Part shown: positions 31,220 to 55,371 of the stretch, one piece after another
Position numbering within the stretch: the first letter of the stretch is position 1
How the letters are laid out: every line of letters begins with the position of its first letter
Assembly (NCBI RefSeq): GCF_045037415.1
Contig: NZ_CP173438.1
Direction: 5' to 3' (one strand)
Length of the DNA: 64,000 nt
DNA from: Escherichia coli
Lineage (GTDB): Bacteria; Pseudomonadota; Gammaproteobacteria; Enterobacterales; Enterobacteriaceae
The notes under the pieces: model-generated
What the model saw: only the letters and a program-made list of their open reading frames with translations
Databases searched by the model: none
What the model was told of the DNA's origin: nothing
Position numbers and translations under genes: made by a program

Positions 31220-31296
31220 CTGGCGTGGCATGCAGGATTCGAACCTGCGACCAACCGCTTAGAAGGCGGTTGCTCTGTCCAACTGAGCTAATGCCA
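31220..31296 (-). tRNA. tRNA-Arg (anticodon UCU), phage-encoded
   Basis: Folded by hand: acceptor GTGGCAT/ATGCCAC, D-arm GCTC..GAGC, anticodon stem ACCGC/GCGGT with loop CTTCTAA (anticodon TCT), T-arm GCAGG-TTCGAAT-CCTGC, discriminator G and encoded CCA. Confidence 0.85.
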
Positions 31297-31619
31297 CAAC
31301 GCTGAGAGCACTTAGCCTGTTAAGGCGCCACACTTTGTCGCGGCTCCATAAATGCTCTCATCGTTGTACCCTCGTCTCTTCCGAGGCGTCACACCGAATC
31401 GCCGGGATGGTGAATCCCCGTGCGCGGAATAAAACCGCTCGACTTGCACATTCCGGCTACCTGGTTCGTTTGCCCGAGCAAGGGAGGGTGCCCCTTAAAC
31501 GTATCCAGACCGCTATCGGCGCATGTGCCATACGCCGTACTGCTCAAAATAAAAGCTCACTCCACCTGTTCAATTTAACGACAATCCAGTCAGGTTAGTA
31601 ACCGGAATGAACTCTTTGG

Positions 31620-39902: not shown

Positions 39903-40366
39903 TGATCGATGTTCAAATTATTCCCGCAACCGAAGAGCATCTTCAGATGATTTTGCCGGATGTTCGTCAGGCTGATATTGACGAACTGTATGCGGTATCA
40001 CTGATGACTACCGAAGATGCGCTGCGTGTTGGTCTGCGTACTGCGACTATGGCCTGGTCAGGATTTGCGAACGGAGAACTGGTAACCATGTTTGGCGTAT
40101 CTCCGGCGTCAATGATCGGTGGCAATGGTACGCCATGGCTGGTAGGAACCAGCCGTATTGAAAAATATCAGAAGACATTTCTTCGCCACTGCCGCCCTGT
40201 ATTGCAGCAGATGCTGGCAGTTTATCCGCGTCTGGAAAACTACGTCGACGAGCGAAACCATGTTGCCAAAGCATGGCTCCACTGGCTTGGATTCAGGCTT
40301 GAAGAAGCCGCGCCTTATGGTGCTCTTGGTCTTAATTTCCACAGATTTCACATGGAGAGAAAATAA
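39902..40366 (+). CDS. Hypothetical virion protein
   Basis: ORF, overlapping start/stop with neighbours. Confidence 0.4.
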   Translation: MIDVQIIPATEEHLQMILPDVRQADIDELYAVSLMTTEDALRVGLRTATMAWSGFANGELVTMFGVSPASMIGGNGTPWLVGTSRIEKYQKTFLRHCRPVLQQMLAVYPRLENYVDERNHVAKAWLHWLGFRLEEAAPYGALGLNFHRFHMERK

Positions 40367-40905
40367 TGTGTAACCCAGCCATCGCTTTGGTTGCCGTCAC
40401 AGTGGCATCCACAGCCGCGTCAATGTACAGCCAGAGCAAGCAGGCAAAATACCAGTCAGCCATAGCTGATCGGAATGCTGAAATTGCTGAAGCTCAGGCA
40501 CAGGATTCAATCAATCGTGGGAATATTGAAGCGGATCAGCGTCGTCGTGAAATGCGTCAACGCTCAGGCACTGCGGCGGCCACTATGGGGGCTACCGGTG
40601 CGGAATTAAGTAGCGGAACAGCTCTTGACGTTTTTGCGGATAATGCTCAGTTCGGCGCTCTTGATGCGTTAACGACAGTGAATAATGCTCAGCGTGAGGC
40701 ATATGGGTATCAGGTTCAGGGAATGAATGCTCAGGCACAGGGGGCTGCTGCTCAGTCGGCTGCTAAATCATCGATGACCAGCACTTTGTTAACAGCACCA
40801 CTAAAAGCATACGGTGCATACCAGATGGGCGGAGGAACGTGGAGCCCATTCTCTCAGAAGGCTGCGCCGATTTCTGCTGCTGTTGGCACTCCAACCGGTC
40901 GATAA
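40366..40905 (+). CDS. Internal virion protein (Ala/Gln-rich)
   Basis: 179 aa, low complexity A/Q/G-rich, hydrophobic N-terminus. Confidence 0.4.
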   Translation: MCNPAIALVAVTVASTAASMYSQSKQAKYQSAIADRNAEIAEAQAQDSINRGNIEADQRRREMRQRSGTAAATMGATGAELSSGTALDVFADNAQFGALDALTTVNNAQREAYGYQVQGMNAQAQGAAAQSAAKSSMTSTLLTAPLKAYGAYQMGGGTWSPFSQKAAPISAAVGTPTGR

Positions 40906-40917
40906 GGGGATAATAAG

Positions 40918-43431
40918 ATGCCAGTTGTACCAACAACATCGGGCCGTCAGGTTCAGAGCAGAGGGATTTCGACGCAGGGATTCTCATCGTTTCAGACGCC
41001 AAATGTCGGTGATGTACTTGGCGATGTTGCAGAGCAATATGCAGGTATTATTGCGCAGGCAAAACAGCGTGCGAATGTTGCTATGGCTCAGGATGCTTCT
41101 CTTAGCTTAAGCCAGATAAGCAGCGATCTGCTGAATAACCCTGAAACAGGTTTGCTTAACCTGAAAGGGAAAAATGCTATTGGAAAAGGTCAGGAGTATA
41201 CGCAGCAGTTTGATGCCCAGGTCGAGCAACTGGCTATGTCGCTGCCGGATGAACAGGCTCGTAATGCTTTCATGCAGCAGGCGCAGCAGCAGCGCATTCA
41301 GTTCACTACGCAGGCCGGGCGGCACGAGATAGGGCAAATAAATGCCTACGAAGAAGGCCAGTTTCAGGCGACGCTGCTGAACAATGGTAAAAATGCCGCA
41401 GCATTGTATGGCGACAACGCCGCATACGTATTGGCTAATAAGCAAACTTTCCAGCAAATTGAGGATTACGGCATTGCGCATGGCTGGAGCGACGAGCAAA
41501 TCCAGGCCAAGAAAATCGAGTTTAAAGAGAAGGTTGCTGATGCAGCATTGTCCCAGTGGTCGGCAAACAATGCGACCGCATTCATCCAAAGTAATGGCGA
41601 GTTAAGTGATACTGCTGCTGGAGCTAGCCGTGCTGTAGCAGATAGTGATTCTTCCGAGCGTGCCCGTGGCATACGCAACAATAACCCAGGAAATCTCGAA
41701 TACAGCAAAACCAATCCGTGGGTAGGCCAGACCGGTGATGATGGTCGATTTGCTAAATTCGAAACACCTGAACACGGGATTCGTGCATTAGGGCGGAACC
41801 TGATGTCGTATCAGAGGCAGGGTATTGATACCGTCAGCGAGATAATTAATCGCTGGGCACCGCCTACTGATAAAAATGACACTATGTCGTATATCAAAGC
41901 AGTGTGCGAACAACTTGGCGTTTCTGCTGATGAGCCTCTCGATGCATCTAATCCTGATACCCTGAAGGCGCTTTGTGCAGCCATTATCCATCATGAGAAC
42001 GGTAGCCAGCCATACAGTGATCAGCTGTTAAGTGCTGGTGTCAGTGCAGCACTTGGTTTATCAACAATTCCAACCAACACCAAACGCTATACCGGTAATG
42101 CAGCATTCGATGCGGCATCTCCTGAGGCGCAGGCAAGTTTTATGCGACAGGCGGATCAACTGCGTCGGCAGCAGCAGGCTGAATATAAAACGATGATTGA
42201 CAGCCAAGTTCGCGATGCGACAGCTGCGTATATGCGTGGCGTTGAATTTCCTAACCCACCTGGTGAGGCTGATTTTATTGCAGCTTATGGAGTCAGAGAA
42301 GGAAACCTGCGATATACCGAGTTCAGAAATACGCAAATCGCCGGACAGTATATAGGCTCTTTCCGCAACATGCCGACAAGCAGCATTACAGCATATGTTG
42401 AGCAATTACGCCCGGATACTGGTGAGACAGGGGAGGGTTATGCGGCACGAGCCGCTCTTTATGACAACGTTGTGTCGGCTGCAAGTCAGGTGATAAAGCA
42501 GCGACAGGCTGATCCTGTACAGTTCTCTCTTGCCGCCGGACAGGCAAAGCCTATCGACATGAGCAATAAGGATAACTTTGGACAGAGCGTTGCCTTGCGT
42601 GCTGCTCAGGTCAGTGACCTTGCTAAGTCATATGGCACTCCACTGACGTTCTTTTCCAAAGACGAGGCCAATCAGATCGGTGTTTTCTTTCGTAATGCGC
42701 CCGTTTCCCAACAGGCAGCATATCTCGATACCATCAGGCAGAGCACTGGTGGTGGGCAGGTGTATATGTCAGCACTACAGCAGATCAGTGCCAACGCTCC
42801 ATCTGCTGCCGTTGCCGGGATACTGATGGATAAGCCAGGTGGTATTTTGGCAGAAAAAAACTGGTTTAATCCGGATGTTTCCGTGTCTCCTGAAACCGCT
42901 GCGCAGACAATTCTTGCTGGCGCGGCGGCTCGTAAAGGTACTGATGACGCGAAAGGTATTCCGATGCCTAAAGATGCTGATCTTCGCCTTGAGTTTTCTG
43001 ACATGGTGAAGGATGCATTTGCTGGTGATGCTCAGGGGGCATCAATGGCATACGAGATCGCAAAGGACTATTACGCTGGTGTGATGGCGAAAAAAGGCGT
43101 GGTATCAGGCGAAATTGACAATGATATCTGGAAACAGGCTGTTAACGTAGCTACAGGTGGCGTGCATGACTATAACGGAATGGGGAATGTTCTTTTGCCT
43201 TGGGGAATGTCTGCAGAGCAATTCGATAAGCAGGTTAATCAGGTTTGGAATGAACAAGTTGTTGGCACAGGGATAAAAACACCGCCTGGTCAGTATGGTT
43301 TGCAAAGTTACGGCGATAGTCAGTACCTGGTGAAACTTGGTACTGGTTATCTGCTAAAAGATGATGGTTCTCCCGTTGTTCTTGATCTGACACAGAAGCG
43401 TCAGAGATTCTCCGGAGATATTCCGCAATGA
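40918..43431 (+). CDS. Large internal virion / ejection protein
   Basis: 837 aa; size and position. Confidence 0.5.
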   Translation: MPVVPTTSGRQVQSRGISTQGFSSFQTPNVGDVLGDVAEQYAGIIAQAKQRANVAMAQDASLSLSQISSDLLNNPETGLLNLKGKNAIGKGQEYTQQFDAQVEQLAMSLPDEQARNAFMQQAQQQRIQFTTQAGRHEIGQINAYEEGQFQATLLNNGKNAAALYGDNAAYVLANKQTFQQIEDYGIAHGWSDEQIQAKKIEFKEKVADAALSQWSANNATAFIQSNGELSDTAAGASRAVADSDSSERARGIRNNNPGNLEYSKTNPWVGQTGDDGRFAKFETPEHGIRALGRNLMSYQRQGIDTVSEIINRWAPPTDKNDTMSYIKAVCEQLGVSADEPLDASNPDTLKALCAAIIHHENGSQPYSDQLLSAGVSAALGLSTIPTNTKRYTGNAAFDAASPEAQASFMRQADQLRRQQQAEYKTMIDSQVRDATAAYMRGVEFPNPPGEADFIAAYGVREGNLRYTEFRNTQIAGQYIGSFRNMPTSSITAYVEQLRPDTGETGEGYAARAALYDNVVSAASQVIKQRQADPVQFSLAAGQAKPIDMSNKDNFGQSVALRAAQVSDLAKSYGTPLTFFSKDEANQIGVFFRNAPVSQQAAYLDTIRQSTGGGQVYMSALQQISANAPSAAVAGILMDKPGGILAEKNWFNPDVSVSPETAAQTILAGAAARKGTDDAKGIPMPKDADLRLEFSDMVKDAFAGDAQGASMAYEIAKDYYAGVMAKKGVVSGEIDNDIWKQAVNVATGGVHDYNGMGNVLLPWGMSAEQFDKQVNQVWNEQVVGTGIKTPPGQYGLQSYGDSQYLVKLGTGYLLKDDGSPVVLDLTQKRQRFSGDIPQ

Positions 43432-45230
43432 GTTACTTTGGCCTTAATCCAGTAAACCAGAATCAGCAGCTTGACGAAGCAGCATCAAATCCAGCTGGCT
43501 TTAACAGCGATGTTGGTTTTTTCGACAATGCTGTAGGAGCGGCATTGTCTGGTTTGTACTCCGGGCTGGTGGCAAAGCCAGATCAGTTGCTCTGGGCAGG
43601 GATGGATAAAATCGTATCCCCGATTGCTCAGTTTGTTAACGAAAACACCTCGCTCAATGACACTTCAGTTTCATACATTGCCGAGCAGAGAAAACTAGCA
43701 GAGCAGCAGGTTAAGCGGCTGACGCCTGATGCCGCGACAACCGGAACCGCCGGGCAGGTTCTTTATGGGTTGTTCGATATGGGCGGGCAGGCTGTTGTCG
43801 GTACAACGCTCGGTGGTCCTGTCGGAGGTGCAGCGGCGGTAACTTCGCTACAGGGTTTTTCTGAGTTTGAACGGCTGACAGCACAGGGTGTTGATTTCAG
43901 GACAGCGCAGGAAGCGGGATTAGTGCAGGGCATTACTGCTGGGGCCGGGACATTGATCCCTATGAGCCTCGGGTTACGTGCTGGTGGTGCGCTGGCGGAA
44001 GGTGTGGCGGCTCAGCTCGCGCGGACGGGTGAGAGTTCAGTGCGACGCGCCGCAGCAACAGCAGTACGTGCAACGCCAGATATTGCCTATGCCGCAGGTA
44101 CAAATATTGCGTTCGGTATGGCACAGCGTGGGCTTACTGCAAAAACGCTTCGTGATGGTGGCTATAGCGAAATGGCTAACCAGTATGATGTGTTGGATCG
44201 ACAGGCAATTGCTATTGATGCTGTTCTTGGGGTGGCGTTTGGTGGTGTCGGCAGATTTATTAACTCTCGCGGCGAGTCTACAAGCGCACCAAATTTTTCA
44301 CAAGTTGATGTTGATGCTGCACTGGCGGCGAATGCCGCTCATCATGCTGAAATTGATATTGCGCCCGGCGTGCCGATCAACGTGCTTTCGCGCAATTCTC
44401 ACATTCAGGCTCTGCGAAAAGCTATGTCTGATGTTAGCCAAGGGAGACCTGTAGACGTTGCCAGCATTGTTGAGTCTGCATCTTTCAGTGAAATTCCTGG
44501 GCGCAAGAGTCTGCTGTCTCAGGCAGTTAATGAGGCTCTGTCATCTGTAGATGATGGAGTAACGGCGCGCTCTATAGAAAATCGGTTGCTTGAAGAACAG
44601 GCCGCGCAGCTTTTGCCGCGTGGAGATAGACAGGTTTACCAGTCTGAAATCGCTAATAGCCAACGAATTATTGAAAATCTCACTGAACAGCGTGCACAAA
44701 TTCTTGCAGAAGATCCAACCGGTAGCGGTAAAGCTTTGTCTCGTGCTCGATCAGATAAACAGGCCAGACTTCGCGATATTGATCAACGAATCCGGCAGGC
44801 ACAAGAACGCCTGGAATTTTCCCGTAACGCGTTGGCACCGCACGAGCCTGGCGGTCAGTTTTTTGAAGCTCGAGCAGAACTGGCTCGGAGACAGCAGGCA
44901 GAAAGTGAACTTAATGCTCAGGCTGTTTCATTCTATAAAACAGCAGAGGTCAGGACGCCAGACGAAGTAGCTCCTTTTGAGCCTGATAAAATATTGCAAC
45001 AGGCAGAACAAAAAATGATGGCGGATCAGGCGGGAGATATTGATCTGCGCATAGCTGAAGACTCGCTGCTTGAATCACCTGACATGATAATCACCGTGCT
45101 GGATGATGATGGTAATCCACAATCGCGCAGCGCGCGTGAAGTACTGGATGAAGCGAACAGGGAAAGTGAGCAGGCAATACAGGATTCAAGCCTGTTTGAT
45201 GTAGCTGTGGCGTGTTTCTTGAGAGGTTAA
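43428..45230 (+). CDS. Internal virion / ejection protein
   Basis: 600 aa, Gly/Ala-rich N-terminus, coiled-coil C-terminus. Confidence 0.45.
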   Translation: MSYFGLNPVNQNQQLDEAASNPAGFNSDVGFFDNAVGAALSGLYSGLVAKPDQLLWAGMDKIVSPIAQFVNENTSLNDTSVSYIAEQRKLAEQQVKRLTPDAATTGTAGQVLYGLFDMGGQAVVGTTLGGPVGGAAAVTSLQGFSEFERLTAQGVDFRTAQEAGLVQGITAGAGTLIPMSLGLRAGGALAEGVAAQLARTGESSVRRAAATAVRATPDIAYAAGTNIAFGMAQRGLTAKTLRDGGYSEMANQYDVLDRQAIAIDAVLGVAFGGVGRFINSRGESTSAPNFSQVDVDAALAANAAHHAEIDIAPGVPINVLSRNSHIQALRKAMSDVSQGRPVDVASIVESASFSEIPGRKSLLSQAVNEALSSVDDGVTARSIENRLLEEQAAQLLPRGDRQVYQSEIANSQRIIENLTEQRAQILAEDPTGSGKALSRARSDKQARLRDIDQRIRQAQERLEFSRNALAPHEPGGQFFEARAELARRQQAESELNAQAVSFYKTAEVRTPDEVAPFEPDKILQQAEQKMMADQAGDIDLRIAEDSLLESPDMIITVLDDDGNPQSRSAREVLDEANRESEQAIQDSSLFDVAVACFLRG

Positions 45231-45235
45231 ATTAA

Positions 45236-47710
45236 ATGAGACAGGAATGTATACAAGCGGTCCAGCAGGCGGCGCAGCGCACGTTAACGGCGCGAGAAAT
45301 ACAGAACATTGAAGACCGCATTTATCGAAATATGCGCTCCATTGCTCGTGATGACCCGATGTCGTGGAGACAACTTTCCGAATCAGAGCGGCTATATCGT
45401 GCAGCACAATTGGCATCTGAAGAATTACAGCGAGAAGCGGCATTAAAGAAACGTCGTGTGGCCCTCACTATAGCCGCACGTCAGAGATTGGATAAATTTA
45501 TCAATAGCTATCAAGGGGCTGATGGGAAACTTGGCGCTCTTAACCGTACTATTGCTTTTAATGCAGACGGTAAATCGAATTTCCTCTCTGTTGAGTCCAG
45601 AACAAAAGCCACTCGTGATTATGCATTGAGTCAATTGCAAGAGGCATTTGAAGCAGTTGATCCTCGCTTTTTTGGCCTGTTTGAAGATGAAGCTGGCGTG
45701 CGTGACCTGGTATATGAAATGCGAGGGCAAAATACTGGCAATGCTAAAGCAAGAAAAGGTGCTAAGGCGTGGAGAGAAGTTACAGAGCTGCTGCGCCGCC
45801 GGTTTAATGATGCTGGTGGGGACATTGGCTATCTCGAAAACTGGGGGATCCCTCAACATCATTCTATGGAAAAGGTTGGGGCGGTATCAAAGGATAAGTG
45901 GGTTGGCGATGTTATAGGTAAGCTGGATCGCAAATATTATACCCGAGCCGATGGACAACTGATGAACGATGCCGAGTTGTCTGCATTTCTTGGAGAGGCT
46001 TATAACACGATAGCTACTGGTGGGCTGAATAAGCTTACTGATACCGGAATGCGAATTTCCGGCGCACGTGCTAACCGTGGTAATGCATCACGACAGATAC
46101 ATTTCAAAAATGCAGATTCCTATCTCCAATATCAACAACTTTATGGTGATCGCTCTCTATGGGAAATCATGGTCGGTCACCTGGAAGGTATCAGTAAAGA
46201 TATTGCTCTGGTGGAAACATATGGTCCAAACCCCGATCATGTTTTCCGCTCCCTTCTTGATCAGGTGAAGGCAGAAACGGCAACAGCTAACCCGAGTAAA
46301 ACCGGTAAAGTCGAGCGGCTGGCGAACAACACAGAGAATCTGTACAACTTTATTTCCGGAAAGACACAGCCTGTAGCGAATCCGCACATCGCGCGATGGT
46401 CTGACAATATCCGCAACTGGCTGGTTGCCAGCAGACTCGGATCCGCGTTGCTGTCATCGTTCTCTGATCTTGGAACCATGTATCTGTCTGCGAAGGTTAC
46501 CAACCTTCCAATGAACCAGTTATTCCGCAACCAGCTTGAAGCTATGGACCCAACGAACCGTACAGAACTTGCGCGGGCGCGCCGCGCTGGTCTGGCGATG
46601 GAATCTCTACTTGGCAGCGTTAACCGCTGGGCGATGGATAATATGGGGCCGTCTGTGTCTCGTTGGGCTGCAACGGCGGTAATGCGTGCCAGTGGGCTTA
46701 CAGCATGGTCAGATGCGCACAAGCGCGCCTATGGCGTAACCATGATGGGAAGCCTGGGAGAAGTAGTGTCACGGACACCAGACCTTCGTAGCCTCGATGA
46801 TTCTGATTTTCGTATCCTGAAAAGCAAAGGGATTACTGACACAGACTGGAGCGTATGGAAGCTGGCGCAACAGGAGGACTGGGGGAACGGCAATAATACG
46901 ATGCTGACACCGGAAAGCATTATGCGTATCCCTGATTCAGCAGTTAAACATCTTGGTGAGCCTGAACGCGTGAAATTTGAGGCAATGCGTAAACTGCTCG
47001 GTGCCGTAACTGAAGAAGTTGATATGGCTGTTATTACACCGGGAGCACGTGAGCAACTGATAACCGGTTCTGGTATTCAGCGTGGAACATGGAAAGGTGA
47101 ATTAACGAGAAGTGTTTTCCTGTTTAAATCGTTCCCTATCTCGGTGGTTATGCGTCACTGGTCACGCGCTATGGGTATGCCGTCTGCTGGTGGGCGTGCG
47201 GCATATATTGCGACGTTTATTGCCAGTACGACCATTCTTGGCGCTTTGTCGCAGCAACTTAACGACCTTGCGTCTGGTCGTAATCCTCGCGAGATGACAG
47301 GAGAAGATGCTGCTAAATTTTGGCTTGGTGCTCTACTGAAAGGTGGTGGTCTTGGCCTTTACGGTGACTTTTTATTGTCAGATCACACTAGGTACGGAAG
47401 CGGCGCGCTGGCGTCGATGCTTGGCCCGGTAGCTGGTCTGGTTGATGACGTAGTGAAGATTGCTCAGGGCATACCGTTAAATGCTGTGGAAGGGAAGAGT
47501 GAGCAGACTGGTGGTGATCTGGTGAAGCTGGGGAAAGGTTTGATGCCTGGTGCGAATCTCTGGTACTTGAAGGCGGCTCTCGATCACATGATCTTTAACC
47601 AGATGCAGGAGTATTTTTCACCAGGCTATTTGCGTAAAATGGAGCAACGTTCGAAGAAAGAGTTTAACCAGACATACTGGTGGCGACCACAGGATGTCAC
47701 TCCGCAATAA
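45236..47710 (+). CDS. Large internal virion / ejection protein
   Basis: 824 aa last gene of the tail/core operon. Confidence 0.45.
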   Translation: MRQECIQAVQQAAQRTLTAREIQNIEDRIYRNMRSIARDDPMSWRQLSESERLYRAAQLASEELQREAALKKRRVALTIAARQRLDKFINSYQGADGKLGALNRTIAFNADGKSNFLSVESRTKATRDYALSQLQEAFEAVDPRFFGLFEDEAGVRDLVYEMRGQNTGNAKARKGAKAWREVTELLRRRFNDAGGDIGYLENWGIPQHHSMEKVGAVSKDKWVGDVIGKLDRKYYTRADGQLMNDAELSAFLGEAYNTIATGGLNKLTDTGMRISGARANRGNASRQIHFKNADSYLQYQQLYGDRSLWEIMVGHLEGISKDIALVETYGPNPDHVFRSLLDQVKAETATANPSKTGKVERLANNTENLYNFISGKTQPVANPHIARWSDNIRNWLVASRLGSALLSSFSDLGTMYLSAKVTNLPMNQLFRNQLEAMDPTNRTELARARRAGLAMESLLGSVNRWAMDNMGPSVSRWAATAVMRASGLTAWSDAHKRAYGVTMMGSLGEVVSRTPDLRSLDDSDFRILKSKGITDTDWSVWKLAQQEDWGNGNNTMLTPESIMRIPDSAVKHLGEPERVKFEAMRKLLGAVTEEVDMAVITPGAREQLITGSGIQRGTWKGELTRSVFLFKSFPISVVMRHWSRAMGMPSAGGRAAYIATFIASTTILGALSQQLNDLASGRNPREMTGEDAAKFWLGALLKGGGLGLYGDFLLSDHTRYGSGALASMLGPVAGLVDDVVKIAQGIPLNAVEGKSEQTGGDLVKLGKGLMPGANLWYLKAALDHMIFNQMQEYFSPGYLRKMEQRSKKEFNQTYWWRPQDVTPQ

Positions 47711-47721
47711 AAGGAGATATG

Positions 47722-47844
47722 ATGGTTCAAATAACTTTTATTGTACTAATATGTGCAGCGTTTTTATGCTATTCATACATTTTGATAAAAATGGGTTTCA
47801 ATTGGAATCTCTGTTGCGTGCAGCGGCATGGTTCGGCTTTGTAG
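47722..47844 (+). CDS. Small hydrophobic peptide (40 aa), uncertain
   Basis: SD aaggag 6 nt upstream of ATG 47722; MVQITFIVLICAAFLCYSYILIKMGFNWNLCCVQRHGSAL. The ORF-track alternative 47694-47882 is in another frame. Confidence 0.3.
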   Translation: MVQITFIVLICAAFLCYSYILIKMGFNWNLCCVQRHGSAL

Positions 47845-47929
47845 TATTAGGAATTGTATTGTTCGGAAGAATAATAAAATAACTAGTTAATTTGTGGATT
47901 GGTGCTGTTTTTCCATGATAGGGGTAATT

Positions 47930-48310
47930 ATGAGAAAAGTATTTTTGATTTTTGGATTTATGCTTCTCGTTGGATGCCAGTCAGCTGCACAGTTTGAAAG
48001 AAATATGCTTACGTGGCGCGGGCAGAGTATAGACGCAATGGTTCAGCAGTGGGGGTATCCTCAGGGAGAGCTTACATCTCCAGATGGAAACAGAGTGTAT
48101 GTTTACTCAAGCTCTGGTAGTTATAACGTACCACAAACCACAACGTATAATACTACGTCTAATCTAATTGGTAATACTATATATTCAAACACATACGCAA
48201 CAACTGATGGCGGTTATACACTCCATTTCAGTTGCTCTGTTTACGTTGAGTTTGGTGCTGATAAGATTATTAAAAATGTTACATGGCGCGGTAATAATTG
48301 CGTTGCGTGA
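47930..48310 (+). CDS. Lipoprotein (accessory gene)
   Basis: SD aggggtaa; lipoprotein signal peptide MRKVFLIFGFMLLVGC with lipobox LVGC; Ser/Thr/Tyr/Asn-rich mature part. Confidence 0.6.
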   Translation: MRKVFLIFGFMLLVGCQSAAQFERNMLTWRGQSIDAMVQQWGYPQGELTSPDGNRVYVYSSSGSYNVPQTTTYNTTSNLIGNTIYSNTYATTDGGYTLHFSCSVYVEFGADKIIKNVTWRGNNCVA

Positions 48311-48341
48311 CATGTCACAGGCCGCTTTCGCGGCCTTGTTT

Positions 48342-48503
48342 TTAACGAATGCCACCGCCACCCGGGCGGGAATCCGCAGAACGCCCACCGCAGCGGGAGC
48401 CGTCAGCAGCAGTGTCGCTGTCGTGCTGACAACGACCGGCAAAGGCCTGAGTTGAAGCTACCAGAGACAACAAAACGAACAGTGCAGCAAATGCTTTTTT
48501 CAT
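48342..48503 (-). CDS. Small secreted peptide candidate (53 aa), low confidence
   Basis: MKKAFAALFVLLSLVASTQAFA signal-peptide-like start followed by a Gly/Arg/Asp-rich tail; lies in a short GC-rich segment. Confidence 0.25.
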   Translation of the reverse strand: MKKAFAALFVLLSLVASTQAFAGRCQHDSDTAADGSRCGGRSADSRPGGGGIR

Positions 48504-48574
48504 TGTGAAATTTCCATCTATAAGCCACCTCAATGTGGCGTCAATGAGTGTAGCACTGACTTTTGTTTCGTCCA

Positions 48575-48597
48575 CAAAAAAGCCCGCGCTGCGGGCT
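48575..48597 (-). terminator. Rho-independent terminator after the 210-aa unknown gene
   Basis: On minus strand agcccgc-agc-gcgggct followed by TTTTTT. Confidence 0.6.
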
Positions 48598-48601
48598 TCT
48601 A

Positions 48602-49234
48602 TTAATGCAGTTTATCTTTGCTTATAACCAGTAGTCTGTGGGTATGCACATCTTTATCACTGCCCCAACAGAAATCAGCCCACTGGCTATAGAAATCATC
48701 CCATGATGTCATGAAGCTAAGAGGTCTATCTTCTTCAGAGCCATCTGAAACGTATACATTATATCCTGGGGTGTTTATAGCCCAAGAAATCATTCTTTCC
48801 CAGAATCTTCTCCCATCGATTGTTTGTTGCTCATCAGATACAACGATCGCATATTGCTCTAGGAAGAACTGAAAAAAAATCTGAGGCAAACCATGAACAG
48901 CACGGTCATGAATAACATTAGGCGTACGCCATACCATGATCTGCGTACATGTTCTTTTGGCTTCGACGATATCTTCCCGAAAGATTAACTTAACCGCATA
49001 CACCGTTTCTGGAGTATCGCTGGTAGTAATCATTCTGTAATGATCGCCATTACAAGATTTTACAAGGCGATAACCATAAGGTGTTGTGAATCCCGGAAGA
49101 ACGAAATCAACCACACCTTTCGCTAAGTAGCTTTCGGTGTGACTAGTGTTCTTCTCAGACATGTTCAGTTTTCTATCGAAATCTGCTTCTGGGATAATGT
49201 ATGGCATCGCTTTTCTTGTTGTATTTGTTCTCAT
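48602..49234 (-). CDS. Hypothetical protein (210 aa) of unknown function in the accessory locus
   Basis: SD gggagga before ATG; own promoter region with palindromic motif and own terminator; no recognisable family. Confidence 0.5.
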   Translation of the reverse strand: MRTNTTRKAMPYIIPEADFDRKLNMSEKNTSHTESYLAKGVVDFVLPGFTTPYGYRLVKSCNGDHYRMITTSDTPETVYAVKLIFREDIVEAKRTCTQIMVWRTPNVIHDRAVHGLPQIFFQFFLEQYAIVVSDEQQTIDGRRFWERMISWAINTPGYNVYVSDGSEEDRPLSFMTSWDDFYSQWADFCWGSDKDVHTHRLLVISKDKLH

Positions 49235-49293
49235 TTCGTCCTCCCATGTTTGGCTACAGGACGCGTTTTGAAGGGAAGATTAAAAATGCTTTC

Positions 49294-49308
49294 TTACCCT
49301 TGAGGTAA
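49294..49308. promoter_or_regulatory. Palindromic operator-like motif TTACC-CTTGA-GGTAA
   Basis: Perfect copy 60 bp upstream of the 210-aa gene start. Confidence 0.55.
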
Positions 49309-49380
49309 TAGTACGCTATTCACCCCCAGTCTGCAATCTGTACAGAATTATTTAAAGGCACATCCCTGTGCCGCCGCCCG

Positions 49381-50037
49381 TCAGAAGAACCCTGCCTTGT
49401 CGTTGATGTACTCCGCGTGCGTCTGGATATCACGCAGGCATTTGCTCACACCAACGATGTAGCAGAACATGGTGGTCAGCTCCGCCGCCGCGCCCGATAC
49501 GTCGTGCCCGTCGTCCTGTAACTGGTTCAGCAGATTCATCAGCAGTGAGTTCTCCGTCAGGCCGAGAACACCAGACGGCGAGTGAATCAGGCTGCGGTAG
49601 CCGGGCTTCAGTGGGGCACTGTATTCTTTTTTGTCTTCCAGCTTGATCGCCTCCATAATGGCGGGCATGAAGCCTGACAAGACCTTCTCCACTTTTGTTT
49701 CTTGTTGTCTTAAACGTTTCTCGCATTCAATGAAGTAGCGTCGCACCTGGCGACCTTTTTCGTTACGCTCGACCATCGCCAGCTCTTTGGCTGTATCAAG
49801 GGTGAGGTGGTACTCTTTGCGGTTGTGGCCGCCTCTACCAGATGTTTGCTTTCCCAAATTGGAAAGCAAAATATAGTCTTGATTTTCAATGAATTCGTAT
49901 TCTGATATGCGATTTGTAATCCATGCTGCAAACACCTTTTTAACACCTAAAAAAGCGTGCAGATCGCGGGCATTACAAAGTAGGGCTGTTTCGTTAGATA
50001 TAGTGCCGTTGAATACGGGGATGAGTTGAGCGTTCAT
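49381..50037 (-). CDS. Antirepressor (AntA-like N-terminal domain plus KilAC-like C-terminal domain)
   Basis: N-terminus ..[36 protein letters not shown].. matches the AntA/AntB pattern as recalled; C-terminal about 80 aa homologous to the downstream 85-aa protein. Confidence 0.65.
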
Positions 50038-50310
50038 GATGGCGTCTCCACTTAGCGAATTACATCACCACCGCTGAGAACCAATCAGATGGTGGTGAAC
50101 TGAACGGAGTTGGTCTTACCGGCCTAAGTGGTACCGGCGTCCTTTCGGACCCCCATTCAGCCCACCATAATTCTGGCATGACTGTGCTATACGCATAAAA
50201 AAACCACGTCTGGCGTGGTATGCGCCACTTAGTAATCCGGGAGAACCAATCCCGGCACTGGATTTTGCCAGTGCCCGATTACTATGGCACAAGAGGAGTG
50301 CGATGTAAAT

Positions 50311-50325
50311 TTACCGCAAAGGTAA
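50311..50325. promoter_or_regulatory. Palindromic operator-like motif TTACC-GCAAA-GGTAA nested inside a larger palindrome
   Basis: Perfect copy flanked by ggagtgc (50294-50300) and gcactcc (50332-50338). Confidence 0.55.
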
Positions 50326-50356
50326 ATATAAGCACTCCATTTGGTAATTTCAAACC

Positions 50357-50614
50357 TTATCTGGTTTGTTTTCGTAATTGTTCGGCACAATAGTCGAGAT
50401 GTGTTTGCAGATCCTGCATAGACATCTGTGAGCTGGTGACGTAGTTAATCAGTGCAGTCAGTTCGGCAAGTGGGCCATCGACATTAAATCCATCCTTATC
50501 GAGATCCCGGAGTAATTTCATCAAGTGCGATCCCTCCACCAGTGACCTGACGCCTCCCGGCGTGTGAATCCTTTCGGTAAATCCGTCTTCCAGTGGATAG
50601 TGATACTGCTGCAT
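50357..50614 (-). CDS. Small antirepressor-like protein (KilAC-like domain only, 85 aa)
   Basis: MQQYHYPLEDGF..; about 45 percent identical to the C-terminal domain of the 218-aa antirepressor (shared ..IH(S/T)P.GV..L.E.S.LM.LL..L..DG..V.G..AELT..Y..DxQTH..Y); LexA box 22 bp upstream. Confidence 0.6.
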   Translation of the reverse strand: MQQYHYPLEDGFTERIHTPGGVRSLVEGSHLMKLLRDLDKDGFNVDGPLAELTALINYVTSSQMSMQDLQTHLDYCAEQLRKQTR

Positions 50615-50635
50615 CTTATCTTCTCCATGCAATAA

Positions 50636-50651
50636 CTGTATATTTATACAG
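50636..50651. promoter_or_regulatory. LexA (SOS) box CTGT-N8-ACAG
   Basis: aaCTGTATATTTATACAGta, near-perfect match to the E. coli LexA consensus; overlaps a TATAAA -10-like element of the minus-strand promoter. Confidence 0.75.
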
Positions 50652-50690
50652 TAGCAAATAATTTGTTTGCTATCCAGCACGTTTTGCAAA

Positions 50691-50705
50691 TTACCTGAAA
50701 GGTAA
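50691..50705. promoter_or_regulatory. Palindromic operator-like motif TTACC-TGAAA-GGTAA between antirepressor-like gene and tailspike
   Basis: Perfect copy in the divergent intergenic region. Confidence 0.55.
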
Positions 50706-50809
50706 TATCTATTCGTATTTACAGCCTTTCTATCCATATGTGGTTTTCCAGGTAATAGAATAACCAGATATGCGGCGCAACGGGTGCTGCGACTATCTGG
50801 AGATTTAAC

Positions 50810-53461
50810 ATGACGGTTTCAACCGAAGTTGACCACAACGAATACACCGGTAACGGAGCTACGACATCATTTCCGTATACCTTCCGTATTTTCAAAAAAT
50901 CCGACCTGGTTGTTCAGGTGTCTGACCTGAACGGGAACGTAACAGAATTGGTTCTGGATACTGACTACACAGTAACCAATGCTGGAGGATATAATGGCGG
51001 TAATGTAATTCTGTCGAAGGCGTTGGCTAACGGTTATCATATTTCTATATCACGAGAGCTCCCGGTTACGCAGGATACTGATTTGCGTAATCAGGGTAAG
51101 TTCTTCGCTGAGGTACATGAAGACGCGTTCGATAAACTGACAATGCTTATTCAAAAGTGTTTTTCATGGATGAGGTTAGCACTTATAAAACCAAGCATTC
51201 TGGCTAACTATTATGATGCAAAAAATAATAAGATATCAAATCTAGCAAATGCCACTGACAGAAACGATGCTGTCAATAAAGGTTATGTTGATGATCTTTT
51301 TACTGGAGGTGTAACGCCTACATCTAACAGCGCTAAAAACGATATTTTTACAAATCACCAAAGAAAGATTGTAGCTACGATGCCGCTTCTTTTTCCTGAA
51401 TATGATGCGATTATGGCTGCTAACCCGTCAGCAACTTATATGTATCCTCAAGGATTCTGCGTTAGCGAAGATTTGATATACATCACTTATCCATTTGAGC
51501 CTAAACAGACGAATAATGTCGTCGCAGTATTTAACATATCTGGTATTTATCAAGGTTATTTCTATGTTCAGGCTGGCGGCCCAGGCTTCGCTGCTGAAGG
51601 AATCGTGGTTACGTCAGACTATGGCCCCAAAAAAATGTTTGTTGGTCACACAAACGGAATACTGCGTGAATTTAATATGGAGGGGGCATTATACGGAAGC
51701 AATCTGCCTCTTGTACAAAACCATGATGTTGGATTATTCAACCAGTTCAGCTACAGAAGAGGTATATGGCTCGTTGAGCAGAATGCGCCAGAAGTAGGAC
51801 AGAAAATCACAAGAACTGTACTTGCAGTGTTCGACAGTGGTTTCAATCGCCTGTCAACTATAACGCTGCCGTTACATGATGTTGGGTATGTAACTAAAAG
51901 CACCTCACCTTATGCGCCTTATTTCAACAAGCGTCAGGGTATTGCGGTAGGTGATAACTACTTTGTCTGCGGCTATGGCGGCTTCATAGCTGATGGGGCA
52001 GGAAGCGCAGGATATAACGAATATCAGGGCAGCAAAGTTTTTAACCCTGACGGTACAAAGCGAACTGAATCAATGCTTCATCCTCAGGCCATGATGGATT
52101 TAATGAAAGCCGCAGGATTGAACGTCACTCGCATAGAAAATGAAGGCGTTTGTGTTTCTCAGGATGGAAAATCCATTTATTCACTTTACATTCATCAGGA
52201 AAGAACTGGCTCTGAACCTTACAATTCAGGTTTGGTTATTTTCGAAGATTTCTCCACTGATAAAGATGCTATCGATTTTACACCTGCATCCAGGCTTTAC
52301 CGCGGATTTGATATCGATCACGCGAGCATTGGGGTATATCCCCGTAGTGCGAAGGGGATTGTTAACCCTGTAGATGGTACGTTGTTCACTAACATGACTG
52401 AAATTCTTCGCTATATGCAGGAGATGAGTCAGAAGGCATTTAATTTTTACACAGGGACTGTCAGCATTGCTGATATATCTGGCGTGGCAATCCCTTCCAG
52501 CACATATGTTGAAATACTGAATGCGAATAATCAGACTTTTATAGTCAACTATTATTCATCTGATAGTGGCATTAGTTATTTGGTTGCAACTAATCCTTCT
52601 GGTGACTTTGTATTTGTGCGCCAGCGACCGGCACAGTGGGCATCTAACTTAACCATTCAGCAAAACGCAGATCCTGATACAAACCAATTAAACCGCATCA
52701 CTGCATCATCATATGCCGGTGCAACTACAAACTCTCAGAAAATATTGGTCCTTGACCAGCAGGCTACAGCTAGCGCAAATAGCTTGGTATTGGGCGGTAG
52801 TTCTTCTGTGTTTAGGTCTGCCACCACGGTGGATATTGCATGCAACAGCGACCCGACAGCATTGGGAGGAACCATACGCTGGCGGTTTTATGATACAGGT
52901 CTTCGCCCGTTTGCTGACAATACCTATAATTTTGGTCAGGCATCGTTTCGTATTAAAGACGCCTACTTTGCAAATGCCCCAACCGTTTCATCAGATGCCA
53001 CGCTGAAAACCAATCCCGAGGCAATATCAGATTTAAGTGAAATGCTTTCTTCTGATAGAGACAGCATTCTTGATGCCTGGGGCGATATTTCTGTTGTGGC
53101 GTATCGATGGCTCGACGCTATATCCATGAAGGGCGATGGTGCCAGATGGCATTTTGGCGTCATGGCTCAGCAGGTAAGGGATGTATTCTTGGCGCACGGA
53201 ATTGATGGAACCAGATTTGGCCTTCTTTGCTATGACGAGTGGGATGATATTTTTGAGCCGGTAATCGCGACTAAAGAGATTACCGATACGTCTGGTGAGT
53301 TGGTCACCGTCGAATATGACACCGGAGAACAGAGGCTGGTTAAAAAAGCGGGTAGTTCATGGGGTATACGGCCTGACCAGTGCGCTTGGCTTGAGGCTGC
53401 ATATCAGCGCCGTCGATGCGATCGTATTGAAGAGCGACTCGAACTATTGGAATCAAAATAA
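50810..53461 (+). CDS. Tailspike / tail fiber with C-terminal intramolecular chaperone (peptidase S74-like) domain
   Basis: 883 aa; conserved phage fiber N-terminal anchor (..YTGNGATTSFPYTFRIF..); C-terminal ..DAWGDISVVAYRWLDAI..GDGARWHFGVMAQQVRDVF.. matches auto-cleaving chaperone domains of tailspikes as recalled. Confidence 0.8.
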   Translation: MTVSTEVDHNEYTGNGATTSFPYTFRIFKKSDLVVQVSDLNGNVTELVLDTDYTVTNAGGYNGGNVILSKALANGYHISISRELPVTQDTDLRNQGKFFAEVHEDAFDKLTMLIQKCFSWMRLALIKPSILANYYDAKNNKISNLANATDRNDAVNKGYVDDLFTGGVTPTSNSAKNDIFTNHQRKIVATMPLLFPEYDAIMAANPSATYMYPQGFCVSEDLIYITYPFEPKQTNNVVAVFNISGIYQGYFYVQAGGPGFAAEGIVVTSDYGPKKMFVGHTNGILREFNMEGALYGSNLPLVQNHDVGLFNQFSYRRGIWLVEQNAPEVGQKITRTVLAVFDSGFNRLSTITLPLHDVGYVTKSTSPYAPYFNKRQGIAVGDNYFVCGYGGFIADGAGSAGYNEYQGSKVFNPDGTKRTESMLHPQAMMDLMKAAGLNVTRIENEGVCVSQDGKSIYSLYIHQERTGSEPYNSGLVIFEDFSTDKDAIDFTPASRLYRGFDIDHASIGVYPRSAKGIVNPVDGTLFTNMTEILRYMQEMSQKAFNFYTGTVSIADISGVAIPSSTYVEILNANNQTFIVNYYSSDSGISYLVATNPSGDFVFVRQRPAQWASNLTIQQNADPDTNQLNRITASSYAGATTNSQKILVLDQQATASANSLVLGGSSSVFRSATTVDIACNSDPTALGGTIRWRFYDTGLRPFADNTYNFGQASFRIKDAYFANAPTVSSDATLKTNPEAISDLSEMLSSDRDSILDAWGDISVVAYRWLDAISMKGDGARWHFGVMAQQVRDVFLAHGIDGTRFGLLCYDEWDDIFEPVIATKEITDTSGELVTVEYDTGEQRLVKKAGSSWGIRPDQCAWLEAAYQRRRCDRIEERLELLESK

Positions 53462-53558
53462 GACCAAATTTAGGTAATTATTATCCGTAAATGGTTTATT
53501 GTGTATGATGGACCTCATCTTCTAAGGGGGTTTTTATGCACAATAAACGGTGGTTACC

Positions 53559-53960
53559 ATGAATGGCACGGTTACGGCGGATTCACTGAATCAAGGGTTA
53601 AGCTTGGGTGCGCTGGCCTCTGTCGTCTACGGCGTTCCGCCAGAGGTGGCTCTCGGTGCTCTGGCTGGTGCGGTAATATTTGTTACCTCTGCTGTAGAGT
53701 ATCCTGTTCGTCGTCGTGTACTCTTGTCGATACTCAGCTTTCTTTGTGGTCTTCTCTTTTACAAACCAACAACATCAATTCTTATCGGAATAGCCAGCAT
53801 GATACCTACCATCACGCAGGACTCTTTCGAGAAAGGGATTGTTTTCTCTGCTGGCGCATTCGTGTCAGCAATTGTCGCAGTGCGAATTGGTATATGGCTC
53901 TATCACCGTTCTGATAATCCACGCCAGTTAATTCCTGGGAGAAAAGGCGATGGTAACTAA
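53559..53960 (+). CDS. Holin-like membrane protein
   Basis: Multiple predicted TM segments; first gene of the lysis cassette; short leader ORF upstream. Confidence 0.45.
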   Translation: MNGTVTADSLNQGLSLGALASVVYGVPPEVALGALAGAVIFVTSAVEYPVRRRVLLSILSFLCGLLFYKPTTSILIGIASMIPTITQDSFEKGIVFSAGAFVSAIVAVRIGIWLYHRSDNPRQLIPGRKGDGN

Positions 53961-54258
53961 TGAGCTTGTTTTGCTTATCACCAATGCAATTATTTGTACT
54001 GGCATAGCAATTCGCGTTGTCACATTCCGGCGTAACGGCTCTCAACATCGAAGATGGGGAGGGTGGCTTGCTTATTTCCTTATTGTTGCTGCGGCCAGTA
54101 TTCCTGTTCGTGTCGCCTATGCAATCTGGTTACGTACGCCAATGGCTGTGGATTTATCTGAGGTCATTATCAACGCTGTCATGCTTGCCGCGGTTATTAA
54201 AACACGCGGTAACGTTGTTCAGATTTTCAAAACATCGAGGTCTAAACATGGAGATTAA
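53950..54258 (+). CDS. Holin-like membrane protein 2
   Basis: 102 aa with 2-3 hydrophobic segments and charged C-terminus; immediately upstream of endolysin. Confidence 0.5.
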
Positions 54259-54877
54259 ACAATTCCAGCGAGCTGCTGGTATTAGCGAGGCTCTGGCCGC
54301 ACGCTGGTTCTCGCATATAACTTCTGCGATGAAAGAGTTTGGTATCAGAAAACCCGAAGATCAGGCAATGTTTATTGCTCAGGTCGGGCATGAGTCTGGT
54401 GGCTTCACCAGGTTGCAGGAGAATTTCAATTACAGCGTCACCGGACTGGCTAACTTCGTTCGTGCCGGTCGTCTTACTCAGGGACAGGCTAACGCATTGG
54501 GTCGTCGTGCAGGCGAGCCACCATTGCCACCTGAGCGCCAGCGTGCGATTGCCAATCTGGTGTACAGCAAACGCATGGGGAACAATGCCTCTGGTGATGG
54601 CTGGAATTACCGTGGCCGCGGACTTATCCAGATTACCGGTTTGAATAACTATCGTGATTGCGGAAACGGCCTGAAAGTGGACCTGCTGGAGAATCCTGAA
54701 CTGTTGGCGCAGGACGAATACGCGGCTCGTAGCGCGGCGTGGTTCTTCTCCAGCAAAGGTTGCATGAAGTATACCGGCGATATTGCACGTGTAACTCTGA
54801 TTATCAATGGTGGCAGGAATGGCATCGACGACCGGCGCGTGCGGTACATCACTGCCAGTAAGGTGCTGGCGGTATGA
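54248..54877 (+). CDS. Endolysin, glycoside hydrolase family 19 (chitinase-like)
   Basis: ..[28 protein letters not shown].. GH19 signature; start at MEIKQFQ (the ORF-track 54017 start is an upstream extension). Confidence 0.85.
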
Positions 54878-55371
54878 TCTGGGCATTCGCAAAAGCATAC
54901 CGGAAACAGTTGGTTGTCATGGCGATGCTTGCTGTTCTGGTCATATCAGGAGTTGTTGCCTGGAATGTGCATGGCAGCCGCCAGTACGATGCCGGGTATG
55001 CTCAGGCGAAGGAAGATCAGAAACAGGCTGATGATAAGTTAAGGTCACAGCGTGAGCAGGAGAAAACACAAATTGAACGTGAAGCACAATCCCGTATCGA
55101 TGCGGCGCGTGCTGATGCTGAGTATGCTAATTCCGCTGCTGACAGCATGCGCGCCGAGCTTGACAAAACCAGGCGGCTCGCCGAACACTATACCGGATCT
55201 TTCCCCCCTGGCACGCCAGCCAGCAAGGTCATCGGTGTGCTCGCCGACATGCTTGAAGAAAGCAACCGAGTTTACAACGCAACAGCAGCTGAGGCTGAAA
55301 AGTATCGTATCGCAGGGGAATTCTGCGAGCAGCAATACGATTCACTGAAGAAGCAAAAATCGTGGCACTGA
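54874..55371 (+). CDS. Spanin inner-membrane subunit (Rz-like)
   Basis: N-terminal TM helix followed by charged coiled-coil region; follows endolysin. Confidence 0.65.
55100..55348 (+). CDS. Spanin outer-membrane lipoprotein subunit (Rz1-like), embedded in the +1 frame of Rz
   Basis: Lipobox LLTAC, Pro-rich mature region; start uncertain (55100 or 55115). Confidence 0.5.
   Translation: MRRVLMLSMLIPLLTACAPSLTKPGGSPNTIPDLSPLARQPARSSVCSPTCLKKATEFTTQQQLRLKSIVSQGNSASSNTIH

Follow-up and report, generated by a model that had tools for sequence, protein, structure and literature searches.

The window analysed here, a stretch of 64,000 nucleotides (nt) from Escherichia coli (assembly GCF_045037415.1, contig NZ_CP173438.1; positions are counted from its first letter), carries a complete prophage of ~40 kb belonging to the Uetakevirus type (epsilon15/phiV10/ZX5), which extends from the integrase at 15662 to an Rz-like gene ending at 55371 and sits between guaA and yfgI/yfgH/pdeF in the chromosome. 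A small gene of this prophage, located at positions 47930 to 48310, is real and conserved, and appears to encode a new and uncharacterised accessory lipoprotein that is borne by phages and predicted to reside in the outer membrane. An earlier sequence-only reading of the window had regarded the product as a candidate for superinfection exclusion, comparable to the Cor and Llp lipoproteins of other phages. Exclusion by this lipoprotein is plausible, and the tentative reading developed below is that of a periplasmic binder, tethered to the outer membrane, which might interfere with phage entry. As it stands, it represents an uncharacterised accessory gene of a kind that will hardly surprise phage biologists.

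The lipoprotein gene and its product

The open reading frame (ORF) starts with ATG, comprises 126 codons and stops at TGA. The same 381-nt coding sequence is called by NCBI PGAP in RefSeq genomes. Its elements, all located on the + strand, are as follows:

47930..48310, +, coding sequence of a prolipoprotein of 126 amino acids (aa) of the phrog_3716 family (translation; phrog_3716 match at E = 5e-64; PGAP record WP_157905739.1)
47920..47924, +, Shine-Dalgarno-like AGGGG, 5 nt before the ATG (read from the sequence)
47966..47977, +, lipobox codons L13-V14-G15-C16, Cys16 being the predicted lipidated first mature residue (read from the sequence)
48233..48301, +, codons for Cys102 and Cys124, a pair invariant in 70/70 diverse family sequences
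48319..48346, +, intrinsic terminator found by a terminator scan, with a G+C-rich stem of 7 bp (AGGCCGC / GCGGCCT), a 4-nt loop and a T-run

The deduced prolipoprotein, MRKVFLIFGFMLLVGC followed by QSAAQFERNM...GNNCVA, consists of a signal peptide (residues 1-15) and a mature domain (residues 16-126). The positively charged n-region MRK is followed by an 11-residue hydrophobic core, VFLIFGFMLLV, and by the lipobox LVGC, and all the hallmarks of a signal peptidase II substrate (n-region, h-region, lipobox and invariant Cys) are present; there is also a weak match to LPAM_1. Sorting of lipoproteins in E. coli by the Lol pathway obeys the established +2 rule, and since the +2 residue of the protein is a Gln, with no Asp acting as an inner-membrane retention signal, the lipoprotein is predicted to reach the outer membrane. 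Some records hold a longer, GTG-initiated version of 138 aa, a start which is unsupported since every homolog begins at the M-K/R-K position.

A total of 37 close homologs were found. The predicted lipid-accepting Cys16 is invariant in 22/22 aligned homologs and, across a set of 70 diverse family members, is retained in no fewer than 90%, and a lipobox pattern occurs in 155/205 collected family proteins. Pairwise nonsynonymous distances (dN) amount to 0.1-0.4 with saturated synonymous distances (dS), and the dN/dS ratio, where computable, is of ~0.05-0.15, which indicates that the gene is under strong purifying selection. In addition, the lipoprotein is 100% identical in vB_EcoP_ZX5, an isolated and viable phage. 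The lipoprotein signal peptide, the good ribosome-binding site and the prophage origin announced by the sequence-only reading are thus borne out, as is its description of the mature domain as rich in Ser, Thr, Tyr and Asn, these four residues accounting for 39% of it. Together with Gly, they make up as much as 73% of residues 60-100. This hairpin region displays a mean column conservation of 0.69-0.77 in the phage clade vs 0.25-0.41 in the broad family, and can be proposed as a candidate clade-specific interaction surface. Cys102 and Cys124 presumably form a disulfide bridge in the periplasm.

Family and predicted fold

The absence of any recognisable homology, another claim of the sequence-only reading, holds for Pfam and NCBIfam but not overall. 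The lipoprotein aligns over its residues 11-126 with profile positions 1-116 of the 116 positions of phrog_3716, a family annotated as of unknown function, and an exhaustive profile search retrieves 3,705 cluster representatives at E <= 1e-3, and 1,089 at E <= 1e-10, of a large and uncharacterised lipoprotein family in which the enterobacterial phage clade forms one small branch. The members are mostly lipoproteins of 120-140 aa with the common motifs WGYP, P-x-GN-x-VYVY, GG and C...GN-x-C. Relatives from named genomes and AlphaFold DB, the named genomes being scanned with an alignment tighter than the 70-sequence family alignment, occur in Vibrio, Providencia, Budvicia, Piscirickettsia, Dyella, Janthinobacterium, Oxalobacter and Paracoccus, and also in Sulfurovum, Arcobacter, Sulfurospirillum, Desulfobacterales, Omnitrophota and Bacteroidota. 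No conserved partner gene was found beside the distant homologs; the only synteny is at the lineage level in the Campylobacterota, with housekeeping neighbours, where the family members adjoin hspR-cbpA, valS, rimK and feoB. Other surroundings are also encountered, e.g., a transposase and a permease beside a 46%-identical protein, or an integrase-bearing island. Homology with a housekeeping lipoprotein, which the sequence-only reading had named as evidence against itself, is thus partly borne out, the sampled distant relatives being chromosomal lipoproteins of diverse diderms.

Some family members carry additional C-terminal parts that, from a reading of their sequences, we take to be SHOCT-like, MORN-repeat or SH3-like. 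Such modules are fused to, or located beside, distant members, e.g., on a Vibrio breoganii megaplasmid (5067-5879) and in the proteins P0040, P0042 and P0183, and this recurrent association might hint at the cellular role of the family.

The AlphaFold2 model of the lipoprotein shows a mean predicted local distance difference test (pLDDT) value of 83.9, most of the mature domain falling between 85 and 95. In the model, two short helices are followed by six long strands to give a BamE/OsmE/BLIP-like fold, the β-sheet of which is predicted to be lengthened by hairpins rich in Ser, Thr, Asn and Tyr. Fold comparison of the model yields scores of 9.5 for 4ifa, 7.6 for YjgB (DUF4309), 7.4 for a BLIP-like protein, 6.8 for BamE, 6.7 for BtiO, the immunity lipoprotein of a type VI secretion system (T6SS), 6.6 for OsmE and 5.4 for YfeY, and the related chain 4h0a is detected with the family profile at the sequence level (E = 3e-5). 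Among predicted viral structures the fold is rare, with one match at E <= 1e-3.

The lipoprotein model has the two-helix and β-sheet core of BamE and OsmE, but the identity amounts to 11-16%, and the lipoprotein adds long β-hairpins and a conserved pair of cysteines; moreover, BamE is a housekeeping subunit of the β-barrel assembly machinery (BAM), whereas the lipoprotein is phage cargo, and neither the lipoprotein nor a single one of the 70 family members matched the Pfam family SmpA_OmlA. The CAP_assoc_N (PF14504), DUF4309 and BLIP-like domains (PDB codes 4ifa, 4h0a, 4ygt and 3d4e) belong to secreted Gram-positive proteins of unknown role or to β-lactamase inhibitors, which are neither lipoproteins nor phage-borne, and no member of the lipoprotein family passes the Pfam thresholds. 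BtiO from Bacteroides fragilis (PDB code 9uu1) is 12% identical to the lipoprotein, which has no T6SS context here. What stands from these comparisons is a large lipoprotein family, located outside Pfam and NCBIfam, with a BamE/BLIP-like fold.

Distribution and genomic slot

The lipoprotein gene closes an operon of genes for internal virion (ejection) proteins, from which it is separated by an AT-rich spacer:

40918..47710, +, three ejection protein genes of 837, 600 and 824 aa (phrog_992, 1145 and 684)
47694..47882, +, AT-rich spacer containing a pair of small ORFs that overlap (47719-47844 and 47694-47882), a single hydrophobic segment being present in either ORF

The gene occurs in 34 of 5,426 complete E. 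coli genomes, including those of APEC O1, CE10 and IAI39, and 33 of these copies are at least 99% identical. Among 24 sequenced phages with a virion protein at least 90% identical to that of 824 aa, it is found in two only, a partial record and ZX5. Klebsiella, Salmonella, Enterobacter, Morganella, Raoultella and metagenomic contigs hold homologs with identities as low as 48%, which without exception close the ejection-protein operon, with synteny in the Salmonella, Klebsiella, Morganella and Raoultella prophages. The upstream junctions are often of 0-10 nt or overlap by 4 nt, such short or overlapping junctions being those of Salmonella, Morganella, Raoultella and the metagenomic phages, and a hairpin terminator always lies 3' of the gene, as in the Klebsiella, Salmonella, Enterobacter and Morganella copies. 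In the window, the terminator begins 9 nt past the stop codon, ends the + strand unit and faces the end of a convergent minus-strand operon.

Other members of the phage group carry other genes in the same slot, and the lineages differ as follows: a 46-aa peptide with two transmembrane (TM) segments in SPN1S, the phiV10 type and PAS61; a two-TM protein of ~64 aa in the epsilon15 type; polytopic proteins of ~100 aa in phiv142-3 and Tyrion; a secreted protein of 283 aa in EC.W1-9; and a two-TM protein together with the lipoprotein in Raoultella and Morganella. Because the exported or membrane protein encoded there differs between lineages, the end of the ejection-protein operon of Uetakeviruses is a hotspot for envelope-directed cargo and, whatever the function of the lipoprotein, a defined place in which to seek new exclusion genes. 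The lipoprotein gene displays the features of a moron, i.e., a deviant base composition (G+C content of 37-41% for the segment 47600-48350 vs 48-55% for the virion genes), presence or absence among close relatives and a downstream terminator, and these sequence features indicate that it is an optional cargo of epsilon15/phiV10-type prophages.

The lipoprotein is 79% identical to that of a Klebsiella phage vs 28% for the ejection protein E3, and 68% identical to that of a Salmonella prophage vs 94% for E3. Across the lineages compared in this way, no co-evolution of the lipoprotein with the neighbouring ejection proteins was seen. Because the identities do not track each other, the cassette moves by recombination within the slot, and the target of the lipoprotein is more likely to be conserved in the host than to be one of the ejection proteins.

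In the spacer, the ORF 47719-47844 (MMVQITFIVLICAAFLCYSYILIK...) is preceded by a strong AAGGAG ribosome-binding site and the ORF 47694-47882 ends with ...AAAWFGFVVLGIVLFGRIIK. Upon comparison with the intact 46-aa and ~64-aa two-TM ORFs of SPN1S, the phiV10 type and the epsilon15 type, both may represent what remains, after a frameshift near an A5 run at ~47787-47791, of the small two-TM protein found at this place in relatives. Phage ZX5 and strain LS45 show an identical, unannotated arrangement. The AT-rich spacer upstream of the lipoprotein gene in the Klebsiella phage ST11-OXA245phi3.2 contains, on the opposite strand (7856-8000, -), an unannotated hydrophobic ORF of 39 aa, MKSKMITFFLRLTVLAVFILALNIVIYGIPRIFGMPWIN, which could be a small membrane peptide.

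In a first sample, lipoprotein carriers mostly passed directly from tailspike to holin, and SPN1S, the phiV10 type, PAS61 and the epsilon15 type possessed an acetylase or a polymerase. The corresponding anti-correlation between the lipoprotein and seroconversion genes broke on wider sampling, phiv142-3 and EC.W1-9 having neither and one Morganella prophage having both.

Two other roles are serious rivals of phage exclusion. The gene could be a moron serving host fitness, with no part in conflicts between phages, a captured envelope lipoprotein that would aid the lysogen in outer-membrane homeostasis, stress tolerance or serum resistance; Bor of phage lambda offers a precedent for a lipoprotein of benefit to the lysogen. 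The size of the family (3,705 clusters) and its non-phage chromosomal members, the BamE/OsmE-like fold, the low-G+C cargo followed by a terminator and the extraintestinal pathogenic nature of the three carrier strains named above are consistent with this possibility, which nevertheless has to be considered as rather unlikely. A gene that benefits the lysogen is expected to be active in the repressed prophage, whereas in most lineages this one is tied closely to the operon of late structural genes, and it shows no detectable promoter of its own; its position, too, is strictly kept within one phage group instead of being scattered over prophage types.

The coupling to the late operon would suit a late lytic accessory, made together with the virion proteins and acting on the envelope of the dying cell, where it could modulate the disruption of the outer membrane or inactivate the entry trigger on debris and vesicles, thus sparing the progeny. 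A similar rationale, sparing the progeny from receptor on debris, has reportedly been proposed for Llp of phage T5. The gene shares the strand of the ejection-protein operon that it closes, at a distance of 0-10 nt or with an overlap in several lineages, and has a terminator directly 3' of it, all of which agrees with this role. However, the gene is dispensable, most of the sequenced Uetakeviruses being devoid of it, the lysis cassette is complete without the lipoprotein, including an embedded Rz1-type o-spanin, and the enzymatic tailspikes, as is generally known of tailspike phages, already free such phages from O-antigen debris. A late lytic role accordingly seems decidedly unlikely. The lipoprotein itself was also considered as an o-spanin of the Rz1 type and rejected, since an Rz1 is already embedded in the lysis cassette, the lipoprotein gene is located 5 kb away from this cassette and the lipoprotein is folded in the model.

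Possible functions in phage exclusion

Interference with phage entry by an outer-membrane-tethered periplasmic binder is the reading tentatively retained, with somewhat less than even chances of being correct. The 12-kDa domain of the lipoprotein would hang in the periplasm, stapled by the Cys102-Cys124 disulfide, and would bind another protein as do BamE, BLIP and BtiO, which share its fold and from which a compact protein-binding or inhibitor module is inferred. By disturbing phage entry at an outer-membrane or periplasmic step, it would shield either the cell, infected or lysogenic, or the progeny. Depending on the route, the lipoprotein would either bind a conserved component of the host envelope needed by incoming phages or obstruct the assembly of the trans-envelope ejection conduit at the outer membrane. 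By analogy, it might be a functional counterpart of Cor/Llp, or of SieA from phage P22, recruited from an unrelated protein family.

A positional parallel is offered by P22, a temperate podovirus specific for the O-antigen. In P22, the gene order is ejection genes 7-20-16, sieA, ant and tailspike, and the lipoprotein gene occupies the same slot as sieA, between the ejection-protein genes and the ant and tailspike genes; in the window, an Ant/C4/isrK immunity block likewise lies between this slot and the tailspike gene, and the cargo of the slot is envelope-directed in every lineage. SieA interferes with the conduit formed by the ejection proteins and so prevents DNA delivery (PMC10883804). It is, however, a polytopic inner-membrane protein devoid of homology to the lipoprotein, which has no hydrophobic segment past its signal peptide and no SieA family among its PHROG matches. 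Lysogens of the SPN1S type exclude other phages by modification of their lipopolysaccharide (PMC3424200), whereas no O-antigen-modifying gene occurs among the ORFs of the present prophage.

Several observations weigh against an exclusion role. With respect to expression, sieA is located on the opposite strand with a promoter of its own, unlike the lipoprotein gene; a consensus promoter scan of the + strand between 47724 and 47930 gave no convincing promoter, promoter-like counts being those expected from shuffled sequences, and because the gene lies on the late-gene strand with no convincing promoter of its own, expression in the lysogen finds no support in the sequence. With respect to ancestry, most of the distant family members sampled are chromosomal, non-phage proteins of diverse Gram-negative (diderm) bacteria, and because the sampled members of the wider family are mostly of this kind, the ancestral function was probably not phage exclusion. 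To our knowledge, no protein receptor has been identified for this phage group. Relatives of this podovirus adsorb to the O-antigen (PMC3424200), a receptor that a lipoprotein facing the periplasm cannot mask. Finally, the annotation is of no help: the lipoprotein finds chance-level matches only (E 0.3-0.7) in Pfam and NCBIfam and no PADLOC match at E <= 0.1, the paper describing ZX5 annotates the gene as hypothetical, and a literature search found no paper joining Uetakevirus with a lipoprotein.

The comparison with Cor and Llp put forward by the sequence-only reading calls for a separate discussion. All are small accessory lipoproteins encoded by phages, with a signal for signal peptidase II and a predicted location in the inner leaflet of the outer membrane. 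According to this comparison, the lipoprotein would act as a plug, blocking an FhuA-like outer-membrane receptor from the periplasmic side and thus stopping adsorption. The small size and the predicted outer-membrane destination accord with a plug, and the lack of co-variation with the ejection proteins fits a host target. The homology search that the sequence-only reading had proposed nevertheless fails to relate these proteins. In profile comparisons, T5 Llp and HK022 Cor align with the lipoprotein in the signal peptide and lipobox only, over 27 and 20 columns, and both Llp and Cor match phrog_1119, to which the lipoprotein has no match even at E <= 1. The mature domain comprises 110 aa in the lipoprotein vs ~60 aa in Llp and Cor, and the fold differs. 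The likeness in genomic position does not hold either: llp abuts oad (pb5) in T5 and cor is located ~1 kb after the J-like gene in HK022, both beside receptor-binding-protein genes of FhuA-using siphoviruses, whereas the lipoprotein gene ends a podovirus ejection-protein operon with no receptor-binding-protein gene adjacent to it. Relatives of the carrier phage also use the O-antigen, and a plug of the Cor/Llp type appears very improbable.

Should the entry-interference reading prove true, the lipoprotein would constitute a structurally new class among the few exclusion proteins that operate at the level of the envelope, and would point to an undescribed periplasmic or outer-membrane step when phages of the epsilon15/phiV10 type infect a cell. 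Some phages of this type serve in typing E. coli O157 and Salmonella and in their biocontrol. Exclusion at the outer membrane would also provide a first functional handle on a diderm lipoprotein family of ~3,700 clusters with no Pfam entry. In its boldest form, the proposal would make the phage branch the first outer-membrane-anchored exclusion factor described for O-antigen-specific podoviruses, a periplasmic plug with a BamE/BLIP-like fold that would halt, at the outer membrane, either a conserved entry factor of the host or the ejection-protein conduit and would be the outer-membrane counterpart of the inner-membrane SieA; so specific a scheme is plainly unlikely.

Other features of the prophage

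Between the lipoprotein gene and the tailspike gene, four minus-strand genes and two small RNAs are arranged in a convergent block resembling immI, and the tailspike gene is followed by the lysis genes:

48342..50737, -, convergent immI-like block (125-aa ORF, isrK, C4, Ant, 210-aa ORF and 54-aa peptide)
48342-50737 includes the five features that follow
48342-48506, -, secreted peptide of 54 aa, MKKAFAALFVLLSLVASTQAFAG followed by RCQHDSD...GGGGIR (phrog_14503, 'membrane associated protein')
48602-49234, -, 210-aa ORF (phrog_1349), with no NCBIfam or PADLOC match
49381-50037, -, anti-repressor Ant gene, with C4 and isrK immediately upstream
50088-50172, -, C4 antisense RNA (Rfam, 61.2 bits)
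50197-50274, -, isrK RNA (Rfam, 60.9 bits)
50810-53461, tailspike gene, 2.5 kb away from the lipoprotein gene
53550-55371, complete lysis cassette, downstream of the tailspike gene
55052-55348, +, Rz1-type o-spanin ORF (lipobox LLTAC), embedded within the DUF2514 (Rz-like) gene 54874-55371 in its +1 frame

The association of C4, isrK and Ant corresponds to an immunity module of the P1/P7 style (immI, c4-ant) in a Uetakevirus prophage, located between the lipoprotein slot and the tailspike gene like the sar/ant region of P22. Position 48602-49234, beside Ant, seems to be a second variable cargo site, because near-identical prophages hold DUF2335, DUF4760 or YafO-toxin genes there. The 54-aa peptide, called 'transmembrane anchored protein' in some records, is probably responsible for the majority of the ~530 E. 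coli genomes matching a 901-nt query. Elsewhere in the prophage, a phage-borne tRNA-Arg (anticodon TCT) occurs at 31221-31297 (-), with the terminase and portal genes on either side, and a T7 gp14-family protein is encoded at 40366-40905. To the left of the prophage, the host DNA comprises, upstream of xseA/guaB/guaA-like genes, an ORF of 2,693 aa (2693-10774, +), which probably encodes a giant surface protein.

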